Source: Patescibacteria group bacterium (lineage in GTDB: Bacteria > Patescibacteriota > UBA1384 > XYA2-FULL-43-10 > 1-14-0-10-43-13). From it: 64,000 nt of DNA. Of this stretch, positions 6,031 through 45,412 are shown in pieces. Location: contig JBAZNP010000001.1 of NCBI GenBank assembly GCA_041649155.1, positions 558,869 to 622,868 on the forward strand, written 5' to 3'. Both the position numbers and the translations under genes were made by a program. Each line of letters opens with the position of its first letter. Positions within the stretch are counted from its first letter, which is position 1. The notes under the pieces are model-generated. The model worked only from the letters and a program-made list of their open reading frames with translations. It did not search any database and was not told where the DNA came from.

Positions 6031-6046
6031 TCTGGAAATTTCAATT

Positions 6047-6115
6047 GTCATTCCAGACTTGATCTGGAATCTATATAAATAGTAACTGGATCCTGAATCA
6101 AGTTCAGGATGACGC
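6047..6115. mobile_element. MITE-like element (GTCATTCCAGACTTGATCTGGAAT-CTATATAAATAGTAACTGG-ATCCTGAATCAAGTTCAGGATGAC) directly upstream of fba
   Basis: Two perfect 8-bp-stem hairpins with an AT-rich TATATAAAT spacer. Termini GTCAT/ATGAC are inverted. Confidence 0.8.
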
Positions 6116-6124
6116 GAGGAAAAA

Positions 6125-6949
6125 ATGTTCATAAATGTTTCAGAGGAATTAAAAAAATCTAGAAGCGGCGGTTATGCGCTTGGTGCTTTTAATACAAATA
6201 ATCTTGAAGCGACAAAGGCTATTTGCGCAGCTGCTAAAAAGTCGGGCAAACCAGTAATAATTCAAACAACTCCCGGGACGATTGAATATGCAGGTTTAAG
6301 ACAAATATTCGAAATTGTAAAAACGGAAATTGAAGAAACAGGAATTCAGGCAGCGCTTCATCTTGATCACGGCAAAGATTTTGAAGTTGTAAAAGAGTGC
6401 ATTGATATTGGTTATCGCTCTGTAATGATAGACGGCTCAAAGTTACCTTTTGCTGAAAACGTTGCCCTGACAAAAAGAGTTGTTGATTATGCGAAGCCAA
6501 AGAATGTTTCGGTTGAGGCGGAGATAGGCGCTATTGGAACTGATGAAGGTGGAAAGAATGTAGGAGAAGGCACAATGAGTTCTCCTGACGAAGTAAGAAG
6601 ATTCGTGGATCTAACAGGCATCGATTCGATCGCTGTCTCGGTTGGAAACGAGCATGGGGCTCCTGAAGGGGAAAAAATTAATGTAAAGTTGCTTGAAGAA
6701 ATTTCAAAAATTATAGAAATTCCTTTAGTTATGCATGGTGCTTCCGGACTGTCTAATGAAGACATTAAAGCGGTTATTGGTCTTGGCATCGCCAAAATTA
6801 ATATTGATACACAAATTAGAAGGGCGTTCATCGCTGGAATGTCAGACATTGATGAAGAATGCAAAGACTATAGAGATGTTCTGAAAAAATCGATAAACAA
6901 TATAGAGAAAGTGGTAGAGGAAAAGATAAATTTGTTTTCAGAAAAATAA
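6125..6949 (+). CDS. fba: Class II fructose-bisphosphate aldolase
   Basis: YALGAFNTNNLE, HLDHG, MHGASG motifs of class II FBA/tagatose-bisphosphate aldolases. 274 aa. Confidence 0.9.
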   Translation: MFINVSEELKKSRSGGYALGAFNTNNLEATKAICAAAKKSGKPVIIQTTPGTIEYAGLRQIFEIVKTEIEETGIQAALHLDHGKDFEVVKECIDIGYRSVMIDGSKLPFAENVALTKRVVDYAKPKNVSVEAEIGAIGTDEGGKNVGEGTMSSPDEVRRFVDLTGIDSIAVSVGNEHGAPEGEKINVKLLEEISKIIEIPLVMHGASGLSNEDIKAVIGLGIAKINIDTQIRRAFIAGMSDIDEECKDYRDVLKKSINNIEKVVEEKINLFSEK

Positions 6950-7108: not shown

Positions 7109-8122
7109 ATGAAATATGACATCGTAACAATTGGTGATGCATTTGAGGATGTTTTTGTTTTTCCTTCTGATCTTCATGTGAAAAGAGATAAAAACTTTTC
7201 CGGTGGATACGGAGTTAGTTTTGAGCTGGGCGAAAAAATTCCCTTAAAGGAAGTTAGCTATGATGTTGGCGGTTCCGCCTGTAATGCATCTATAGGTTTT
7301 TGTCGGATCGGGCTTGATGCTTCCTTGGTTACAATAGTCGGACAGGACTCGCCAGCTGAAAAAATTTCAACACGACTTTCTTCTGAGTCTGTGGATCTTT
7401 CAAATATTAAAATTGATAAGAAAATGAAAACTAATTTTTCTACAATATTTTCTCTACCGGAAGGTCGAACTATTTTTACATACCATGGCCTTAAAGACTA
7501 TAATCAGTTAAGGATTAAGAAAAATATTCATTCTAAATGGTTTTTTTTGGCACCGATTGGAGATGGCACGGAAGAATTAGAGAAAGATTTAATTGCTAAA
7601 GTGTCGGAAGAAAATTCTTTTTTGGCTTGGAACCCTGGTTCTTTGCAGATAAAAAAAGGAGCTAGTAAGTTTCGTAATTTATTAAAAAATACCTCAGTAT
7701 TATTTCTAAACAGAGAAGAAGCATTAAAATTTATTGATTATCCGGTCAGACCATCCGAGGAAGAAATGCTTAAAAAATTATTTTTCCTAGGTCCAAAATT
7801 GGTTGTAATCACTAACGGGGATAAGGGCGCAAAGGCTTATGACGGAAAATCTATTTATCATGCGAATTCAATTGAAAATTTGAAAATGGTTGATGCAACC
7901 GGTGCCGGAGATAGCTTTGCGGTTGGTGTCATCTCGAATTTATTTTTGTGCAATTGGTCGGGGGAGTCCGATCAGGAATGTATCTCAGTGGCTCTTAAAT
8001 GGGGGATTGTTAATTCTTCGTCGGTGATTGGTTATGTCGGAGCTCAAAAGGGATTGTTGAACAAATCTCAGATCGAGAAGGAACTGGCCGGCAATCCAAG
8101 ACTAAAAGTAGAAGTTGATTAG
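7109..8122 (+). CDS. PfkB-family carbohydrate kinase (ribokinase/phosphofructokinase-like)
   Basis: C-terminal DATGAGDSFAVG anion-hole motif and GG N-terminal motif of the PfkB family. Placement within the glycolytic gene run. Confidence 0.8.
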   Translation: MKYDIVTIGDAFEDVFVFPSDLHVKRDKNFSGGYGVSFELGEKIPLKEVSYDVGGSACNASIGFCRIGLDASLVTIVGQDSPAEKISTRLSSESVDLSNIKIDKKMKTNFSTIFSLPEGRTIFTYHGLKDYNQLRIKKNIHSKWFFLAPIGDGTEELEKDLIAKVSEENSFLAWNPGSLQIKKGASKFRNLLKNTSVLFLNREEALKFIDYPVRPSEEEMLKKLFFLGPKLVVITNGDKGAKAYDGKSIYHANSIENLKMVDATGAGDSFAVGVISNLFLCNWSGESDQECISVALKWGIVNSSSVIGYVGAQKGLLNKSQIEKELAGNPRLKVEVD

Positions 8123-18582: not shown

Positions 18583-20045
<1,463 letters not shown>

Positions 20046-26083: not shown

Positions 26084-26971
26084 GTGTTCAAATTAAATAG
26101 TCTGAAAAAGAAGTTTATCCTTTTGATTACTGCTATTATGCTGGTTATTTTTTCTGTGTCCGGCTATATAGTGTGCCAGGACAGCATAAAAAAAACCAGA
26201 AGGAACTTAACCCAGCAGGCAACTGCCTTCGCTAAACTATCAACAAAGCCTCTGGCTGAGGCCTATGAATTATACTTTGATTCTGGATATTATAAATTCA
26301 GGGAAATTTTTAGGGAAAACAAGGACCTGGATTCAAGCATTAAAAAAATTCAAATTATTAATGTTAATGGAAAAGTTATACTTGATTCAGGCAAGATAGG
26401 TGATAGCAGCTATTTGGGCGGAGATACTGAAACAGTAGATAAATCAACATTAGACAAAGTTACAAGTGCAGATCCGACTTATGAGCATAATCAGAATAAT
26501 GCATCCGAATTAACCGAAATTTTTTATCCATATTTTTCAGATTGGGGTAGTCATCCTTATACTGTAAGATATTTTGTTTCATATGATCAGATTAGATCGA
26601 ATATAATAACAATTATTGAGCAAACCGTTCTTTTGTTTATAGTTTCTTTCTTTATTGTTGTTTTCGCCATTACCAGTTCTGTTAATCGTTTTATTTTGTC
26701 TCCAATTAAAAAGGTTAGTGAGTTGGCGCAGAGGATCAGTCGGGGAAAATACGGAGAGAGAATAAAAATAAAGACAAATGACGAGATAGAAGATTTGGCC
26801 GGTTCTACTAACAAAATGGCTAGAAAATTGGAACAGGATATTATAGATTTAAGGGAATTAGATAAATTAAAAGATGAATTTATCGATGTGGCCGCTCATA
26901 ATTTTAAGGCTCCCTTAAATCATTTGAAATTTGATATAGCCTATCTTATCCAGCATGTTGAAAAAAAGTGA
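26084..26971 (+). CDS. Sensor histidine kinase, N-terminal part (2 TM + HAMP + DHp H-box), ending in a frameshift
   Basis: Two TM helices and a HAMP-like segment. H-box AAHNFKAPL. The ORF ends at HVEKK* inside an A7 homopolymer. Confidence 0.7.
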   Translation: MFKLNSLKKKFILLITAIMLVIFSVSGYIVCQDSIKKTRRNLTQQATAFAKLSTKPLAEAYELYFDSGYYKFREIFRENKDLDSSIKKIQIINVNGKVILDSGKIGDSSYLGGDTETVDKSTLDKVTSADPTYEHNQNNASELTEIFYPYFSDWGSHPYTVRYFVSYDQIRSNIITIIEQTVLLFIVSFFIVVFAITSSVNRFILSPIKKVSELAQRISRGKYGERIKIKTNDEIEDLAGSTNKMARKLEQDIIDLRELDKLKDEFIDVAAHNFKAPLNHLKFDIAYLIQHVEKK

Positions 26972-27546
26972 GCGAAAAAGAGTTTGAACTATTGCAGGAC
27001 ATAAATATTAGCGGAAAAAAACTGCAGCTTTTAAGTGAAGATCTTATCGGCATACAAGCTCTCCAGAACAAAGAGACCGGCAATGTTTTTGTCCCTGTGG
27101 ATTTATCGCAACTGTTAGCAGATGCATTAAATGAATTAAAACACTCTGCTGATGTTAAAAATGTTAAATTTAAGTTTCAGCTAGACAGGAAGATGATTGT
27201 TCTTGGAGAGTATCAAAAACTTAAGCAATTATTTTTAAATTTGATAGACAATGCTATACAATATTCAGATAAAAAGGAGAGCACGGTCTCAGTGCGGATT
27301 AAGGAAAGCGACAATTCCTACATTGTCGAAATTGAAGATCAGGGAGTCGGAATGTTGCCTGAAGAAATTAAAAAGTTATTTCAAAAATTTTACCGTGCTC
27401 CCAGCTCCGAGATTTATAATAAAGAAGGTGCTGGTCTTGGACTCTATCTGGCAAAGCTGATTGTAAATGTTCATCATGGAAATATTTGGGTCGAGAGTGA
27501 AAAGGATAAGGGTAGTTGTTTTCACGTGTCTTTTCTTAAAAAATGA
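26968..27546 (+). CDS. Histidine kinase, C-terminal part (rest of DHp + HATPase_c)
   Basis: N box LIDNAIQYS. G1 EDQGVGM. G2 GAGLGLYLAKLIVNVHHG. Starts at GTG overlapping the upstream stop (GTGA). The frame is restored by +1 nt in the A7 run. Confidence 0.7.
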   Translation: MSEKEFELLQDINISGKKLQLLSEDLIGIQALQNKETGNVFVPVDLSQLLADALNELKHSADVKNVKFKFQLDRKMIVLGEYQKLKQLFLNLIDNAIQYSDKKESTVSVRIKESDNSYIVEIEDQGVGMLPEEIKKLFQKFYRAPSSEIYNKEGAGLGLYLAKLIVNVHHGNIWVESEKDKGSCFHVSFLKK

Positions 27547-28699: not shown

Positions 28700-28901
28700 T
28701 TTGGCTATTTTTTAATTTTAAAAAAATATCTAAAATAAACCGTCTTATTTTGCATAATACTCTATGCTTAATTTTAACTTTGCTTAATATGGCCTTAATG
28801 TGTTGATGCTACAATACAAACTATGTTACCATGCGTTGAGTCTCAGCGACGCTCGTTCGTAGTTGCGGCTGGACAGAAGTAACATAGGAGGTGAAGCACG
28901 A

Positions 28902-29402
28902 ATGCTTGTGCTTACAAGAGGGATGGGTCAGACTATCGTTATCAACGATAATATCGAAGTGACGGTTATTGAAATTAGGAGCGAACAAGTACATCTGAGC
29001 ATAGAAGCTCCTTGCTCAATTCCCATATATCGCAAGGAACCGCTCGATCAGATTGAAACGGAAAATTCGGACGATCCTGATGCCATGATAGTGCCTGAAA
29101 AGCAAACATCCATGTTCATAATGGGAGTGGGTCAGGCTATTGTCATTGGCGATAATATCAAAATAATGGTTGTCGAAATCAATGGTGGGCAGGTACGTTT
29201 GGGCACAGAAGCTCATAGGTCAATTCTCGTGTATCGCAAAGAACTGCTTGAGCAGATAAATGCGCATGCATCGGCCAGACCTGATGTCGCAACGGTAGCT
29301 AAAGTAAAAACGCCTGTGCTTGCAAAGGTGCATCTGGGCAGGTTGGTTTCCGTACGTTGCAAAGAACTGCTTGTGCGATTAATACGGAAACTGCATCTTT
29401 AG
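28902..29402 (+). CDS. csrA: Tandem (two-domain) CsrA-like RNA-binding protein
   Basis: Domain 1 MLVLTRGMGQTIVINDNIEVTVIEIRSEQVHLSIEAPCSIPIYRKEPLDQI. Domain 2 MFIMGVGQAIVIGDNIKIMVVEINGGQVRLGTEAHRSILVYRKELLEQI. Both align to the CsrA consensus (MLxLTRR.GE...IGD.I.v.V......V.iGi.AP..v.v.R.Ei). AGGAGG RBS before ATG 28902. Confidence 0.75.
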   Translation: MLVLTRGMGQTIVINDNIEVTVIEIRSEQVHLSIEAPCSIPIYRKEPLDQIETENSDDPDAMIVPEKQTSMFIMGVGQAIVIGDNIKIMVVEINGGQVRLGTEAHRSILVYRKELLEQINAHASARPDVATVAKVKTPVLAKVHLGRLVSVRCKELLVRLIRKLHL

Positions 29403-29531
29403 AGTCTGATTCCAATGTTAAGAGCAACATCTGAAGCGATTAATGGTTTGCACGGTCGCTTAATCGGTTCTAGTCGAAGGCCGGGAGCTTGTCTCTCGGC
29501 CTATTCTTTTTATATAATAGATATATTAAAT

Positions 29532-29978: not shown

Positions 29979-30110
29979 ATATTGGAAAACAATCTACATT
30001 AAAATAATCGCCAGACTGGTGATTATTTTAAGTGTATTTACTTTTTTCTATAACATGTTATAATTTTATCCATTAACTATCCTGAAGAGATGGTTGGGAG
30101 GGGAGAACGA

Positions 30111-30293
30111 ATGGATTCGTTTTTGATTTTTTTATTCGTAGCTTCAATCTTTGTGCCTTTACAGTGGCCACCTTTATTTCTGGTTTCCTTATGGGAGATG
30201 AGGGTCAGAGATAGCGAGCTGGCGTATCCGGATGGACCGCCCACACATAACTATGCTGGTCGCCTATTGCCGACTGGTCATGATCTTGATTGA
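30111..30293 (+). CDS. Small hypothetical membrane protein (60 aa)
   Basis: GGGAGGGGAG RBS before ATG 30111. One TM helix. Followed by a hairpin terminator at 30310-30337. Confidence 0.3.
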   Translation: MDSFLIFLFVASIFVPLQWPPLFLVSLWEMRVRDSELAYPDGPPTHNYAGRLLPTGHDLD

Positions 30294-30343
30294 TGCAATA
30301 TAAAGTTCTGGACAACCCCGTTTTACAGGGGTTGTCCATTTTT

Positions 30344-31720
30344 TTAAAAATAAAGATCTCTTTCGCCATTTTCAATTCTTTTTAGTCGATCCATGGTTTC
30401 TATTTTTGTGTCTTCTTTTTCGATCATATCTAAATATTTTTCAATTATTTTTTGACCTAGTTTTTTGATTTTCGCATTAGCATAGTCTTCTAGATACTCT
30501 TTAAAAGTTAGTACGGCATTCGGGCGGCAGAGATTGTGAATGTCGCCTGGTTTCGCGATAGCCATAAATTTTTCGCCGGTTCGTCCTTGTCTGTAACAAG
30601 CGGTACAGAAACTTGGAAGCAAATCCTGTTGTAATATACTCTCAATTATTTCTGGTACATTTCTTTCATCGGCAACATTGAATTGTTCTAATATTTTTTT
30701 ATGTCCGTATCCTCCTGGAGCGGTTTTGGAGCCGGCACTGGTTTGGGAAATACCAATCTTAAAGGCCTTGGCTCTTGTTTCTGGTTTTTCTCTTGTTGAA
30801 ATGATCATTCCGGTGTAGGGGACTGCTAGCCTCAAAATTGCAATTATTTTTAATAATTCATCTTCTGAAACTTTATAAGGCGAATTAAATTTCACTGAAT
30901 CGGCCGGTTGAAATCTGGGAACGGAAAAAGTGTGTGGTCCGACTCCGAATTTTTTGTCTAGATACTTTGCATGAGATATTAAGGCTAAAACTTCAAATTT
31001 GTAATCATACAAGCCAAAAAGAACGCCAAGTCCAACATCGTCAATTCCGGCTTCGAAAGCACGATTGTGAGCGAAAAGCTGTCTTTCATAATTCTGTTTT
31101 GGGCCGTTGTGCAGTTTTTCGTATGATTTTTTATGATAAGTTTCCTGAAACAATTGGTATGTGCCGATGCCGACCTCTTTTAATTTGCGATAATCTTCAA
31201 CTGTGGTAGCGGCAATATTTATATTTACTCTGCGGATTTCGCCATTTTTGAATTTTATTTTATAAATTTCTTTAATAACATCGGTCACATAATCGATCGG
31301 GTTTTCTTTTGGGTCTTCTCCAAACTCGAGAAGCAGCCGCTTATGCCCCATATTTTCAAGAATTTTGACTTGTTCCCGCACTTCTTTCAGAGTTAATTTT
31401 TTTCGTGGTGATTTGTTTCTTCTATGAAATCCACAGTATTCACAATCATTTACGCAGAAGCTGGAAACATAGAGAGGAGCAAACAAAACCAGCCTTTCGC
31501 CGTAGATATCATTTTTTATTTTTTCGGCGGTTTTAAATATTTCCTCAATCAATTGCTTACCATCAACATTTAACAAAAAACCGACTTCCTCTAAATTCAA
31601 CCCCTTTTTGTTACGGGCTTTTTTTAGTATTTTCTCGACGATTTTTTTATTTGGTGATTTGGTTAAGCCCAATATCCGATATATTTTTTGTTCATCGATT
31701 ACATCTTTTATATTTGGCAT
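30344..31720 (-). CDS. Radical SAM protein of the HydG/ThiH tyrosine-lyase family, HydG-like (C-terminal CX2CX22C)
   Basis: CVNDCEYCGF (CX3CX2C radical SAM cluster) near the N-terminus. C-terminal CTACYRQGRTGEKFMAIAKPGDIHNLC is an exact CX2CX22C spacing, as in HydG. 458 aa. Confidence 0.75.
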   Translation of the reverse strand: MPNIKDVIDEQKIYRILGLTKSPNKKIVEKILKKARNKKGLNLEEVGFLLNVDGKQLIEEIFKTAEKIKNDIYGERLVLFAPLYVSSFCVNDCEYCGFHRRNKSPRKKLTLKEVREQVKILENMGHKRLLLEFGEDPKENPIDYVTDVIKEIYKIKFKNGEIRRVNINIAATTVEDYRKLKEVGIGTYQLFQETYHKKSYEKLHNGPKQNYERQLFAHNRAFEAGIDDVGLGVLFGLYDYKFEVLALISHAKYLDKKFGVGPHTFSVPRFQPADSVKFNSPYKVSEDELLKIIAILRLAVPYTGMIISTREKPETRAKAFKIGISQTSAGSKTAPGGYGHKKILEQFNVADERNVPEIIESILQQDLLPSFCTACYRQGRTGEKFMAIAKPGDIHNLCRPNAVLTFKEYLEDYANAKIKKLGQKIIEKYLDMIEKEDTKIETMDRLKRIENGERDLYF

Positions 31721-41866: not shown

Positions 41867-42235
41867 TTGTACGAAATATCAGGATAGCAATTGTGAGATA
41901 GGGGCTCACAAGTTGAGATTCTATAGCGCACATTAACAATTAAATAACGCTTTATTAAATATTCAACCACATTTAATAAAGCAAAGAGCAAATATATAAC
42001 TTAAATAATAATATTTGTGTAATTTCAAATTTACCCAGTTAGATGGCGTAAGCTTATCTAACAGGGTGTATATCTTCCGATATAAAAAAATTTCTCAAAA
42101 CAAGTAATTAATATTTCATCCGCCATCTGGCGAGATGGAATCCAGTAATTGCTAGTCAAGATTCTAAGTCGGGCAGTGGGGCAGATACTCAGTAATGAGT
42201 TTTTGCCTTCACTATTCGACCTCTGGAAAAATAAT

Positions 42236-45062
<2,827 letters not shown>

Positions 45063-45293
45063 TATTATTTTTACAATCTTGACTAGTGATTACTGGGTTA
45101 TTCCAGTATTCTTCGAGCGTTTATGATACCGTTCATTGGCTTCCATCTCCTCACCCTTTCTTCGAAAGGATGAGGGACGATGCTGGTGCATCGGATCTAG
45201 CTCAATTTGTTTTCAAATGTGGATGTGGTTTTAGAATAAAGCCTCATCCTGTGTGAAAGCAAAATATTTGCTTTTAAAATTTAAAATAGTTTT

Positions 45294-45412
<119 letters not shown>

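Follow-up and report, generated by a model that had tools for sequence, protein, structure and literature searches.

CsrA is among the best-studied post-transcriptional regulators of bacteria, and its mechanism, both in the bridging of two GGA sites and in sequestration by multi-site small RNAs (sRNAs), rests on two identical RNA-binding sites. In the canonical CsrA/RsmA/RsmE homodimer (E. coli CsrA, 1Y00; Y. enterocolitica RsmA, 2BTI; P. protegens RsmE–RNA, 2JPP), each site is a patch of β1′, β4 and β5, to which one subunit contributes I3, L4 and T5 (PMC5864733) and the other supplies R31, K38, V42, R44 and the C-terminal helix, L4 and R44 being the critical RNA-contact residues (PMC5864733, PMC7652899). 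A homodimer cannot evolve its two sites separately; natural single-chain forms would be ready-made experiments on a CsrA with one canonical site. Here we analyzed a 64-kb stretch (the window) of a contig from an uncultivated member of the Patescibacteria, in which a single gene at positions 28902–29402 encodes two CsrA domains in one chain of 166 amino acids (aa).

In a heterodimeric CsrA with one R44A subunit (Mercante et al. 2009 in PMC7652899), bridging of two GGA sites needed two surfaces, and full repression of glgC required both RNA-binding pockets (PMC7652899). The protein in the window would resemble this heterodimer as a CsrA particle with one working RNA surface, but the heterodimer is a two-chain mixture made in the laboratory, whereas here R44 is kept and R6, R31, R38, L47 and the helix are lost. 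Re-CsrA, an engineered chain of CsrA 1–44, a GGGGSGGGGS linker and full-length CsrA (PDB 5Z38, PMC5864733), was made for a simpler stoichiometry of CesT binding (PMC5864733). The protein described here has the same design, with a helix-less first copy, a linker and a complete second copy, and exactly one site (site A below) is complete; it differs from Re-CsrA in being natural and derived by duplication, and in having an acidic linker that places 26 residues between R44 and domain 2 (10 in Re-CsrA; median of 28 in other tandem CsrAs), more substitutions in the other site (site B) and a basic tail. RsmN/RsmF (PDB 4K59, 4KJI; PMC3791407) is likewise a CsrA-family protein with a structural rearrangement, in which the conserved arginine remains in use. 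RsmN is, however, a homodimer with a helix inserted between β2 and β3, whereas the order of elements is canonical here; the AlphaFold2 model contained no such helix, and the Foldseek alignments to 4K59 and 4KJI were poor (root-mean-square deviation [rmsd], 11.5–12 Å).

The gene encodes a real, independently evolved, asymmetric single-chain CsrA. We consider it likely, if not assured, that a resident csrA was duplicated in place and that its product forms an intramolecular pseudo-dimer in which site A is kept and site B is lost, that is, a monovalent CsrA. The regulator family is known, as is duplication and fusion of a homodimer, a classical route; the architecture is recurrent, and we found it in no paper. 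An earlier reading of the DNA letters alone (the sequence-only reading) had pointed to the gene; its observation is real, and its interpretation is supported and extended by the results below.

Domains, predicted fold and RNA sites

The open reading frame (ORF) runs on the + strand from an ATG at 28902 to a TAG at 29402, exactly as the sequence-only reading had it, and that reading had assigned two CsrA-like domains and a basic tail to it. Scanned against the Pfam CsrA family PF02599 (cut-off, 27 bits), the whole 166-aa protein scored 119 bits over two stretches, and residues 1–58 and 68–123, each scanned separately, scored 72.3 and 59.6 bits, which bears out both domains individually. The last 50 residues matched no family in Pfam. 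PF02599 was the sole Pfam family in the protein, which thus lacks the N-terminal PF02623 domain of FliW–CsrA fusions. The parts of the gene are as follows, with the basis of each assignment in brackets (pLDDT, predicted local distance difference test).

28902..29402, + strand: tandem csrA ORF, 166 aa plus stop codon (ORF list, sequence, Pfam, matching contigs)
28902..29045, + strand: CsrA domain 1, aa 1–48 (Pfam, 72.3 bits; AlphaFold2; syntenic orthologues)
29046..29111, + strand: acidic linker, aa 49–70, DQIETENSDDPDAMIVPEKQTS, net charge −6 (pLDDT 53–76; charge count)
29112..29276, + strand: CsrA domain 2, aa 71–125 (Pfam, 59.6 bits; AlphaFold2)
29277..29399, + strand: basic C-terminal tail, aa 126–166, net charge +8 (charge count; no Pfam match)
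29310–29399, + strand: decayed third csrA copy within the tail (direct-repeat families D1–D4; local DNA alignment)

Domain 1 has a canonical β1 (L2, L4, R6), contains H31, C38 and P47 in place of the ancestral R31, R38 and L47, and has its C-terminal helix cut to three residues (47–49, AlphaFold2). In domain 2, β1 is degenerate: a 6-nt deletion took out T5–R6, M74 stands at the place of R6, and P37 is replaced by H105; of the LTR motif, reported as lost in the sequence-only reading, the T-R is indeed gone, and the VYRKE RNA-binding segment that it reported as kept is present. Domain 2 also keeps R99, R106, R112 and L115 (the equivalents of R31, K38, R44 and I47) and the full helix 113–125. Arginine occupies the column of residue 74 in at least 90% of 40 tandem CsrAs, and R6 is present in 89/90 single-domain homologues.

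For structure prediction with AlphaFold2 we used a tandem-only alignment (A2) of the 40 tandem CsrAs; two MAFFT alignments (A1 and A3) were dropped, since in them every single-domain sequence was aligned to domain 1 and some tandem sequences were out of register. The model had a mean pLDDT of 82.6 and a predicted TM score (pTM) of 0.67, with residues 1–40 and 71–120 at pLDDT 96–98. Predicted strands lie at 2–7, 11–14, 18–25, 29–37 and 42–44 in domain 1, and at 67–75, 79–82, 86–94, 97–104 and 110–112 in domain 2, so that the plan of five strands and a C-terminal helix typical of the CsrA family is full in domain 2 and partial in domain 1. The tail was mostly of low confidence, with a possible helix at 154–164. 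In a Foldseek search of the PDB, each half matched chains of CsrA/RsmA that come from swapped dimers (target-normalised TM, 0.76–0.92; rmsd, 0.6–2.5 Å), among them 1VPZ_B (TM 0.92, 0.6 Å), 5Z38 (0.84, 0.6 Å) and 2BTI (0.82, 2.0 Å). Such an open chain conformation would make sense only with a partner domain filling it, and since pTM reached 0.67 despite about 50 disordered residues, the two domains appear to be packed in a fixed arrangement. The protein is thus predicted to form a compact intramolecular pseudo-dimer with the usual two-sheet β core, a topology that is allowed, because Re-CsrA, an engineered single chain, folds and gave crystals (PDB 5Z38). The model agrees with the asymmetric pseudo-dimer suggested by the sequence-only reading, and the asymmetry is wider than claimed there. 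By the published geometry, the two composite sites would be assembled as follows.

Site A: β1 of domain 1 with β4, β5 and the helix of domain 2; L2, L4 and R6 with R99, R106, V110, R112, L115 and the helix, all ancestral
Site B: β1 of domain 2 with β4, β5 and the helix of domain 1; M74 at R6, R31H, R38C and L47P, helix lost

All derived changes at known RNA-contact positions map to site B by this geometry. Relative to the orthologues, 6/8 contact positions were changed in site B and 0/8 in site A (Fisher p = 0.007); when non-conservative changes only were counted, the numbers were 4/8 and 0/8 (p = 0.077). The two identical composite sites of the CsrA family are therefore not found here, site A being complete and site B altered. 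The linker (net −6) adjoins site B, and the tail (net +8) follows the helix of site A. Likeness to the canonical homodimer is otherwise close: both halves belong to the same Pfam family, share the order β1–β5(–α) and superpose at 0.6–2.5 Å, and one complete site retains the key residues L4, R6 and R44. In contrast to the canonical homodimer, the protein consists of one polypeptide rather than two identical chains, its two RNA sites are non-identical, one of them lacks R6, R31, K/R38, I/L47 and the helix, and it has in addition an acidic linker and a +8 tail derived from a third copy.

Origin at the resident csrA locus

Relatives of the locus were found by scanning metagenome contigs with the upstream D-Ala-D-Ala ligase (ddl), which gave matches of 54–76% identity. 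The three closest (L068, L069 and L070; Ddl 76, 69 and 64% identical) each contain a single-domain csrA directly 3′ of ddl, and csrA in the relatives sits between ddl and a membrane-protein gene, as it does here. L068 shares further neighbours, namely the histidine kinase, a membrane protein at 72% identity and a radical-SAM gene at 82.5%. Since the syntenic relatives are single-domain, the ancestral locus held one ordinary csrA and the fusion arose in place. The CsrA of L070 (66 aa; MLVLARKVEQSIVINDNIELLVIEVRGDQVRLGIEAPRSIPVHRKELLEQIKAENATNVAPEENGL) is 64% identical to domain 1 and 67% identical to domain 2, whereas the two domains are only 54% identical to each other. The derived residues G7 and Y43 occur in both, and the two look like sister copies; their DNA is 69% identical over 147 aligned nt (dS, 0.67; dN, 0.33; dN/dS, 0.5).

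The basic tail noted in the sequence-only reading, whose net charge is +8, turned out to be a decayed third copy of csrA. This copy starts in register (TPVLAK resembling MLVLTR), has an internal deletion of about 80 nt and contains a 1-nt frameshift after KELLV. Its local DNA alignment with copies 1 and 2 scored 38, compared with 16.2 ± 2.2 in shuffled sequences, and 0/2000 shuffles reached 38. Direct-repeat analysis placed csrA copies at spacings of 204 and 408 nt. A csrA unit of about 200–210 nt has thus been triplicated locally, and two of its copies are live and one is dead.

The GC content of csrA was mildly unusual (0.447, compared with 0.372 ± 0.034 for 57 other ORFs; z = 2.2), which hinted at recent horizontal import of the tandem form; we rejected this origin, since csrA occupies the same syntenic slot in the relatives. 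No close tandem relatives were detected, as a word-indexed protein search and a scan of GTDB genomes gave only single-domain csrA genes. As a separate observation, the single-domain CsrA of L068 (2630–2818) is only 41% identical to domain 1, whereas the neighbouring genes are 72–82% identical, and it has E at the near-invariant P37; from this divergence, csrA seems to evolve fast in this subclade of Patescibacteria.

Tandem CsrAs in other metagenomes

Exhaustive searching of 1.84 billion cluster representatives with phmmer revealed 6892 CsrA matches at E up to 0.001. Local hmmsearch of the best 150 of these matches, a list that favours tandem proteins, the query being one itself, identified 86 with two CsrA domains, three with three and five with four; the share of tandem forms among all CsrAs is accordingly a lower bound, at least 94/6892 clusters. 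The closest tandem matches were 39–45% identical overall and none exceeded 45%, whereas each domain was 64–67% identical to the syntenic single-domain CsrA of L070. Common descent with the other tandem proteins was therefore not found, and the fusion in the window is an independent one.

Next to the protein described here, natural multi-domain CsrAs (e.g., P0036, 141 aa; P0186, 150 aa; the four-domain P0035, 303 aa; the phage-borne P0189, 163 aa) share the presence of at least two PF02599-type domains in one ORF, similar linker lengths and the preferential decay of the linker-adjacent site. Among 82 complete two-domain CsrAs, both sites were kept in 63, site A only in 18 and site B only in one, so that the linker-adjacent site decays preferentially (18 vs. 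1; binomial p = 7.6e-5, counted on phylogenetically non-independent cluster representatives with gaps in the HMM alignment scored as lost). The elements lost were mainly β1 of domain 2 (13 proteins) and R44 of domain 1 (11), with R44 of domain 2 lost in one and β1 of domain 1 in none. Residue frequencies in tandem CsrAs were similarly skewed: R44 was present in 87% of first and 99% of second domains, a hydrophobic residue at position 47 in 76% and 95%, and R6 in 98% and 88%, respectively. The protein in the window is the sole one in which we saw a third-copy remnant as a basic tail.

The 18-to-1 bias may reflect a general rule on which of the two sites goes after fusion. A broader claim is tentative, and we would call it possible rather than favoured: natural tandem CsrAs may form a widespread undescribed single-chain class, in which the linker-adjacent site is freed from symmetry and repeatedly lost or re-purposed, its new role being recognition of another RNA motif, contact with a protein partner or autoinhibition through an acidic linker. 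If this were true, there would be monovalent or bifunctional CsrAs with a regulatory logic unlike the bridging and sequestration of the homodimer, and the Patescibacteria protein would stand out among them as especially derived, its dead third copy having been recruited as a basic RNA-affinity tail. Pfam and InterPro domain-architecture tables presumably list CsrA–CsrA proteins, the sequences thus being public though undescribed. Full-text literature searches (tandem, fused, single-chain, multi-domain) found no description of a natural tandem CsrA. In the latest large survey of CsrA diversity, from 2026, the library that was tested went no higher than 100 aa, and the terms ‘tandem’, ‘duplicat’ and ‘two domains’ are absent from its text; the tandem class has therefore probably been overlooked.

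Other arrangements were also seen. Four short proteins (P0083, P0158, P0165 and P0179; 98–112 aa) have a domain 2 that starts at HMM position 7–8 right after β5 of domain 1, without a linker, the second-domain β1 or the first-domain helix, a more radical linker-adjacent truncation. Five proteins (P0035, P0041, P0053, P0057 and P0170; 248–310 aa) contain four CsrA domains per chain, which might be two pseudo-dimers in tandem, and three more contain three. The 163-aa P0189 is encoded at 8001–8492 of L058 (also L059/L060), a 224-kb contig listed as viral in IMG/VR (IMGVR_UViG_3300020202_000001), with many small genes without Pfam match and ribonucleotide reductase genes nearby; the contig probably represents a jumbo phage with a single-chain CsrA. 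Seven other viral contigs gave csrA-sized matches of 162–246 nt. Fusions to other families comprised FliW–CsrA (P0010 and P0012–P0017; 202–226 aa, PF02623 + PF02599), deaminase–CsrA (P0289 and P0296; 239 aa, PF00383/PF14437 + PF02599) and one RecA–CsrA (P0018). A contig of an Acetivibrionales metagenome-assembled genome (L055, 5932–6756) carries two separate csrA genes about 400 nt apart, 5′ of a 1132-aa flagellin, and shows the unfused tandem-gene state.

Proposed mechanism, alternatives and regulatory context

We propose that the resident csrA of this Patescibacteria lineage underwent tandem duplication of its unit, yielding two intact copies and a third that decayed, and that the lack of a stop codon between the copies led to one 166-aa chain with both halves of the usual homodimer. 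Domains 1 and 2 would interdigitate within the molecule to form the two-sheet β core. Because each site is composite (β1 of one domain and β4, β5 and the helix of the other), the fusion makes the two RNA sites genetically separable, and they have diverged, site A keeping its ancestral contact residues and site B losing them. Site A would bind GGA-containing RNA, for instance at ribosome-binding sites, and repress translation as CsrA does; site B would no longer bind RNA canonically. The resulting monovalent CsrA would be unable to bridge two GGA sites, for which the +8 tail after the site A helix possibly compensates. The decay of one specific site and the likeness of a natural protein to an engineered construct make a testable story. 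The recent history of this csrA can also be traced, and its genome is a reduced one from the Patescibacteria, whose regulation is very little known.

Several points weigh against this proposal. The pairing of β1 of domain 1 with β5 of domain 2 in the model was deduced from topology. R44 of domain 1 and a hydrophobic β1 in domain 2 (F72, M74) survive, and site B could keep weak or altered binding. The dN/dS between the copies would fit relaxed constraint as well as specialisation, and the 18-to-1 count shares the non-independence given above. No tandem-form orthologue by which long-term maintenance could be judged was found in any database searched, and no RNA target or antagonist was identified in the window.

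A single-chain CsrA that is symmetric in function, with both sites binding GGA RNA, the fusion fixing stoichiometry or stabilising the dimer and the differences reflecting neutral drift, is unlikely. R44 is found in both domains, β1 of domain 2 is still predicted to be a hydrophobic strand, and 63/82 other tandem CsrAs keep both sites by simple criteria; however, the R6 so nearly invariant in single-domain homologues (89/90) is lost here, the ancestral R31, R38 and L47 are all changed on one site with the other unchanged, and the helix of domain 1 is gone.

We regard it as quite improbable that the gene is a decaying duplication, that is, a recent tandem amplification drifting toward a pseudogene without a selected new function, with the degenerate third copy as the fate that awaits the others. 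Both domains score about 60–72 bits in Pfam and were modelled at pLDDT 96–98, the ORF, ribosome-binding site and terminator are intact, the substitutions are non-random and clustered on one site, and the same polarity is seen in many unrelated tandem CsrAs. These results stand against a third copy that is clearly dead (deletion and frameshift), the dN/dS of 0.5, the lack of a known tandem orthologue and the csrA of L068, whose 41% identity beside neighbours at 72–82% suggests weak constraint in the clade.

Pairing in trans, in which domain 1 would pair with domain 2 of another chain to give swapped dimers or open-ended oligomers, is suggested by the domain-swapped nature of the CsrA fold, but is very improbable given that a 10-residue linker suffices in Re-CsrA while 26 residues are available here, and that the single-chain model was confident (pTM 0.67). 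An artefact, in which a sequencing or assembly error joined two adjacent csrA genes, deserves next to no credence: NCBI annotates only a 93-aa product, yet the DNA is identical across contigs that stem from four or more samples and several assemblers, no stop codon, ribosome-binding site or intact start context precedes domain 2, and at least 94 other clusters have the same architecture.

With regard to the intramolecular, site-A-only CsrA that we favour, the integrity of the gene is further documented by its recovery. The exact 166-aa protein was called on six contigs; four contigs (samples ERZ27247363, ERZ27247350, SRR8542065 and SRR6484787) had 100% DNA identity to the window, and a further (fifth) copy came from a JGI metagenome (L092). 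Because identical DNA was recovered from independent assemblies, the fusion is not the assembly or frameshift error that the sequence-only reading had named as the result that would overturn it. In the public NCBI record (P0001), titled ‘MAG: carbon storage regulator [Patescibacteria group bacterium]’, only a 93-aa product that starts at Met75 is annotated, which conceals the tandem architecture. Reading of the sequence revealed no Shine–Dalgarno or other ribosome-binding site 5′ of the internal ATGs Met71 and Met75; the 166-aa reading is therefore better supported, and separate translation of domain 2 from either ATG was rejected. The flanks of the gene contain the following features.

28804..28816, + strand: promoter-like region, TTGATG then an extended −10 motif, TGcTACAAT (inferred by reading the sequence)
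28821..28886, + strand: GC-rich stem-loop in the 5′ leader, ending directly 5′ of the ribosome-binding site (RNA fold)
28886..28891, + strand: Shine–Dalgarno AGGAGG, 10 nt 5′ of the ATG, with a GGA motif (sequence; kept in relatives)
29478..29510, + strand: intrinsic terminator, 10-bp stem with seven G–C pairs, then a T-run (terminator scan)

The promoter-like region aligns with TTGATA-17-TATAAT promoters 5′ of the single-domain csrA in relatives, and was not among the matches listed by a consensus promoter scan of the window. The leader folded at −34.7 kcal/mol (28818–28915; z = −2.95), and 0/200 shuffles folded as well. Its hairpin (28821–28886) was absent from the relatives’ leaders, had no second copy in the window and no Rfam match; as the relatives’ leaders are without it, it appears to be a lineage-specific insertion. 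The terminator makes the tandem csrA look monocistronic. The leader contains two GGA motifs, neither in a hairpin loop of the predicted fold, and autoregulation through it is weakly suggested.

The part of the genome examined for regulatory partners was the 64-kb window, the NCBI contig that carries the gene being 798,787 bp long. When the window was searched in six frames with a CsrA HMM made for this analysis, the tandem ORF, with its two domains, was the sole match, and hence no second csrA was seen. No tblastn match to FliW or flagellin was found there below E = 2, in agreement with the earlier remark that no flagellar or fliW genes lie nearby. The search for GGA-rich leaders and CsrB-like sRNAs that the sequence-only reading had proposed was made in the window: no Csr/Rsm-type sRNA was matched in Rfam at gathering or E-value thresholds, and intergenic GGA density revealed no CsrB-like region. 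Density peaked at 5 GGA in 94 nt (6031–6124) and 8 in 365 nt (29979–30343), far below that of CsrB. Leader scans, which were without statistical power, listed a few genes with 3–4 GGA motifs. In a groundwater multi-omics study, csrA was among the highly expressed genes of ultra-small microorganisms, including Patescibacteria (PMC9938205).

Two places in the window with GGA motifs were recorded as observations of their own. The leader (6031–6124, + strand) of the gene at 6125–6949 contains 5 GGA in 94 nt, a near-palindrome, CUGGAUCCUGAAUCAAGUUCAGGAUGA, among them, and folds at z = −1.96. Just 3′ of the csrA locus, 30037–30345 (+ strand) is a possible small transcription unit, with a promoter-like site that has an extended −10 (30037–64; 10/12 matches), a strong terminator (30309–38), a fold z of −3.3, no Rfam match and 8 GGA in 365 nt. 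It contains a 60-aa ORF (30111–30293) with the ribosome-binding site GGGAGGGGAG and a hairpin-loop GGA that overlaps the start codon (GAACGAAUGGAUUCGUU); this ORF was not detected in the relative L068, and the unit is a candidate CsrA target or a candidate small membrane protein.

Elsewhere in the window, a sensor histidine kinase is apparently split between ORFs at 26084–26971 and 26968–27546 (+ strand), which overlap by 4 nt and encode a membrane/HAMP part and a HATPase_c part, respectively; the HATPase_c ORF (26968–27546) is 75.5% identical in L068, and the arrangement is either a true split or a frameshift. The 16S rRNA gene (18585–20044) lies about 22 kb from the 23S and 5S genes (42232–45069 and 45296–45411), with protein-coding and tRNA genes between them; unlinked rRNA genes are common in Patescibacteria.

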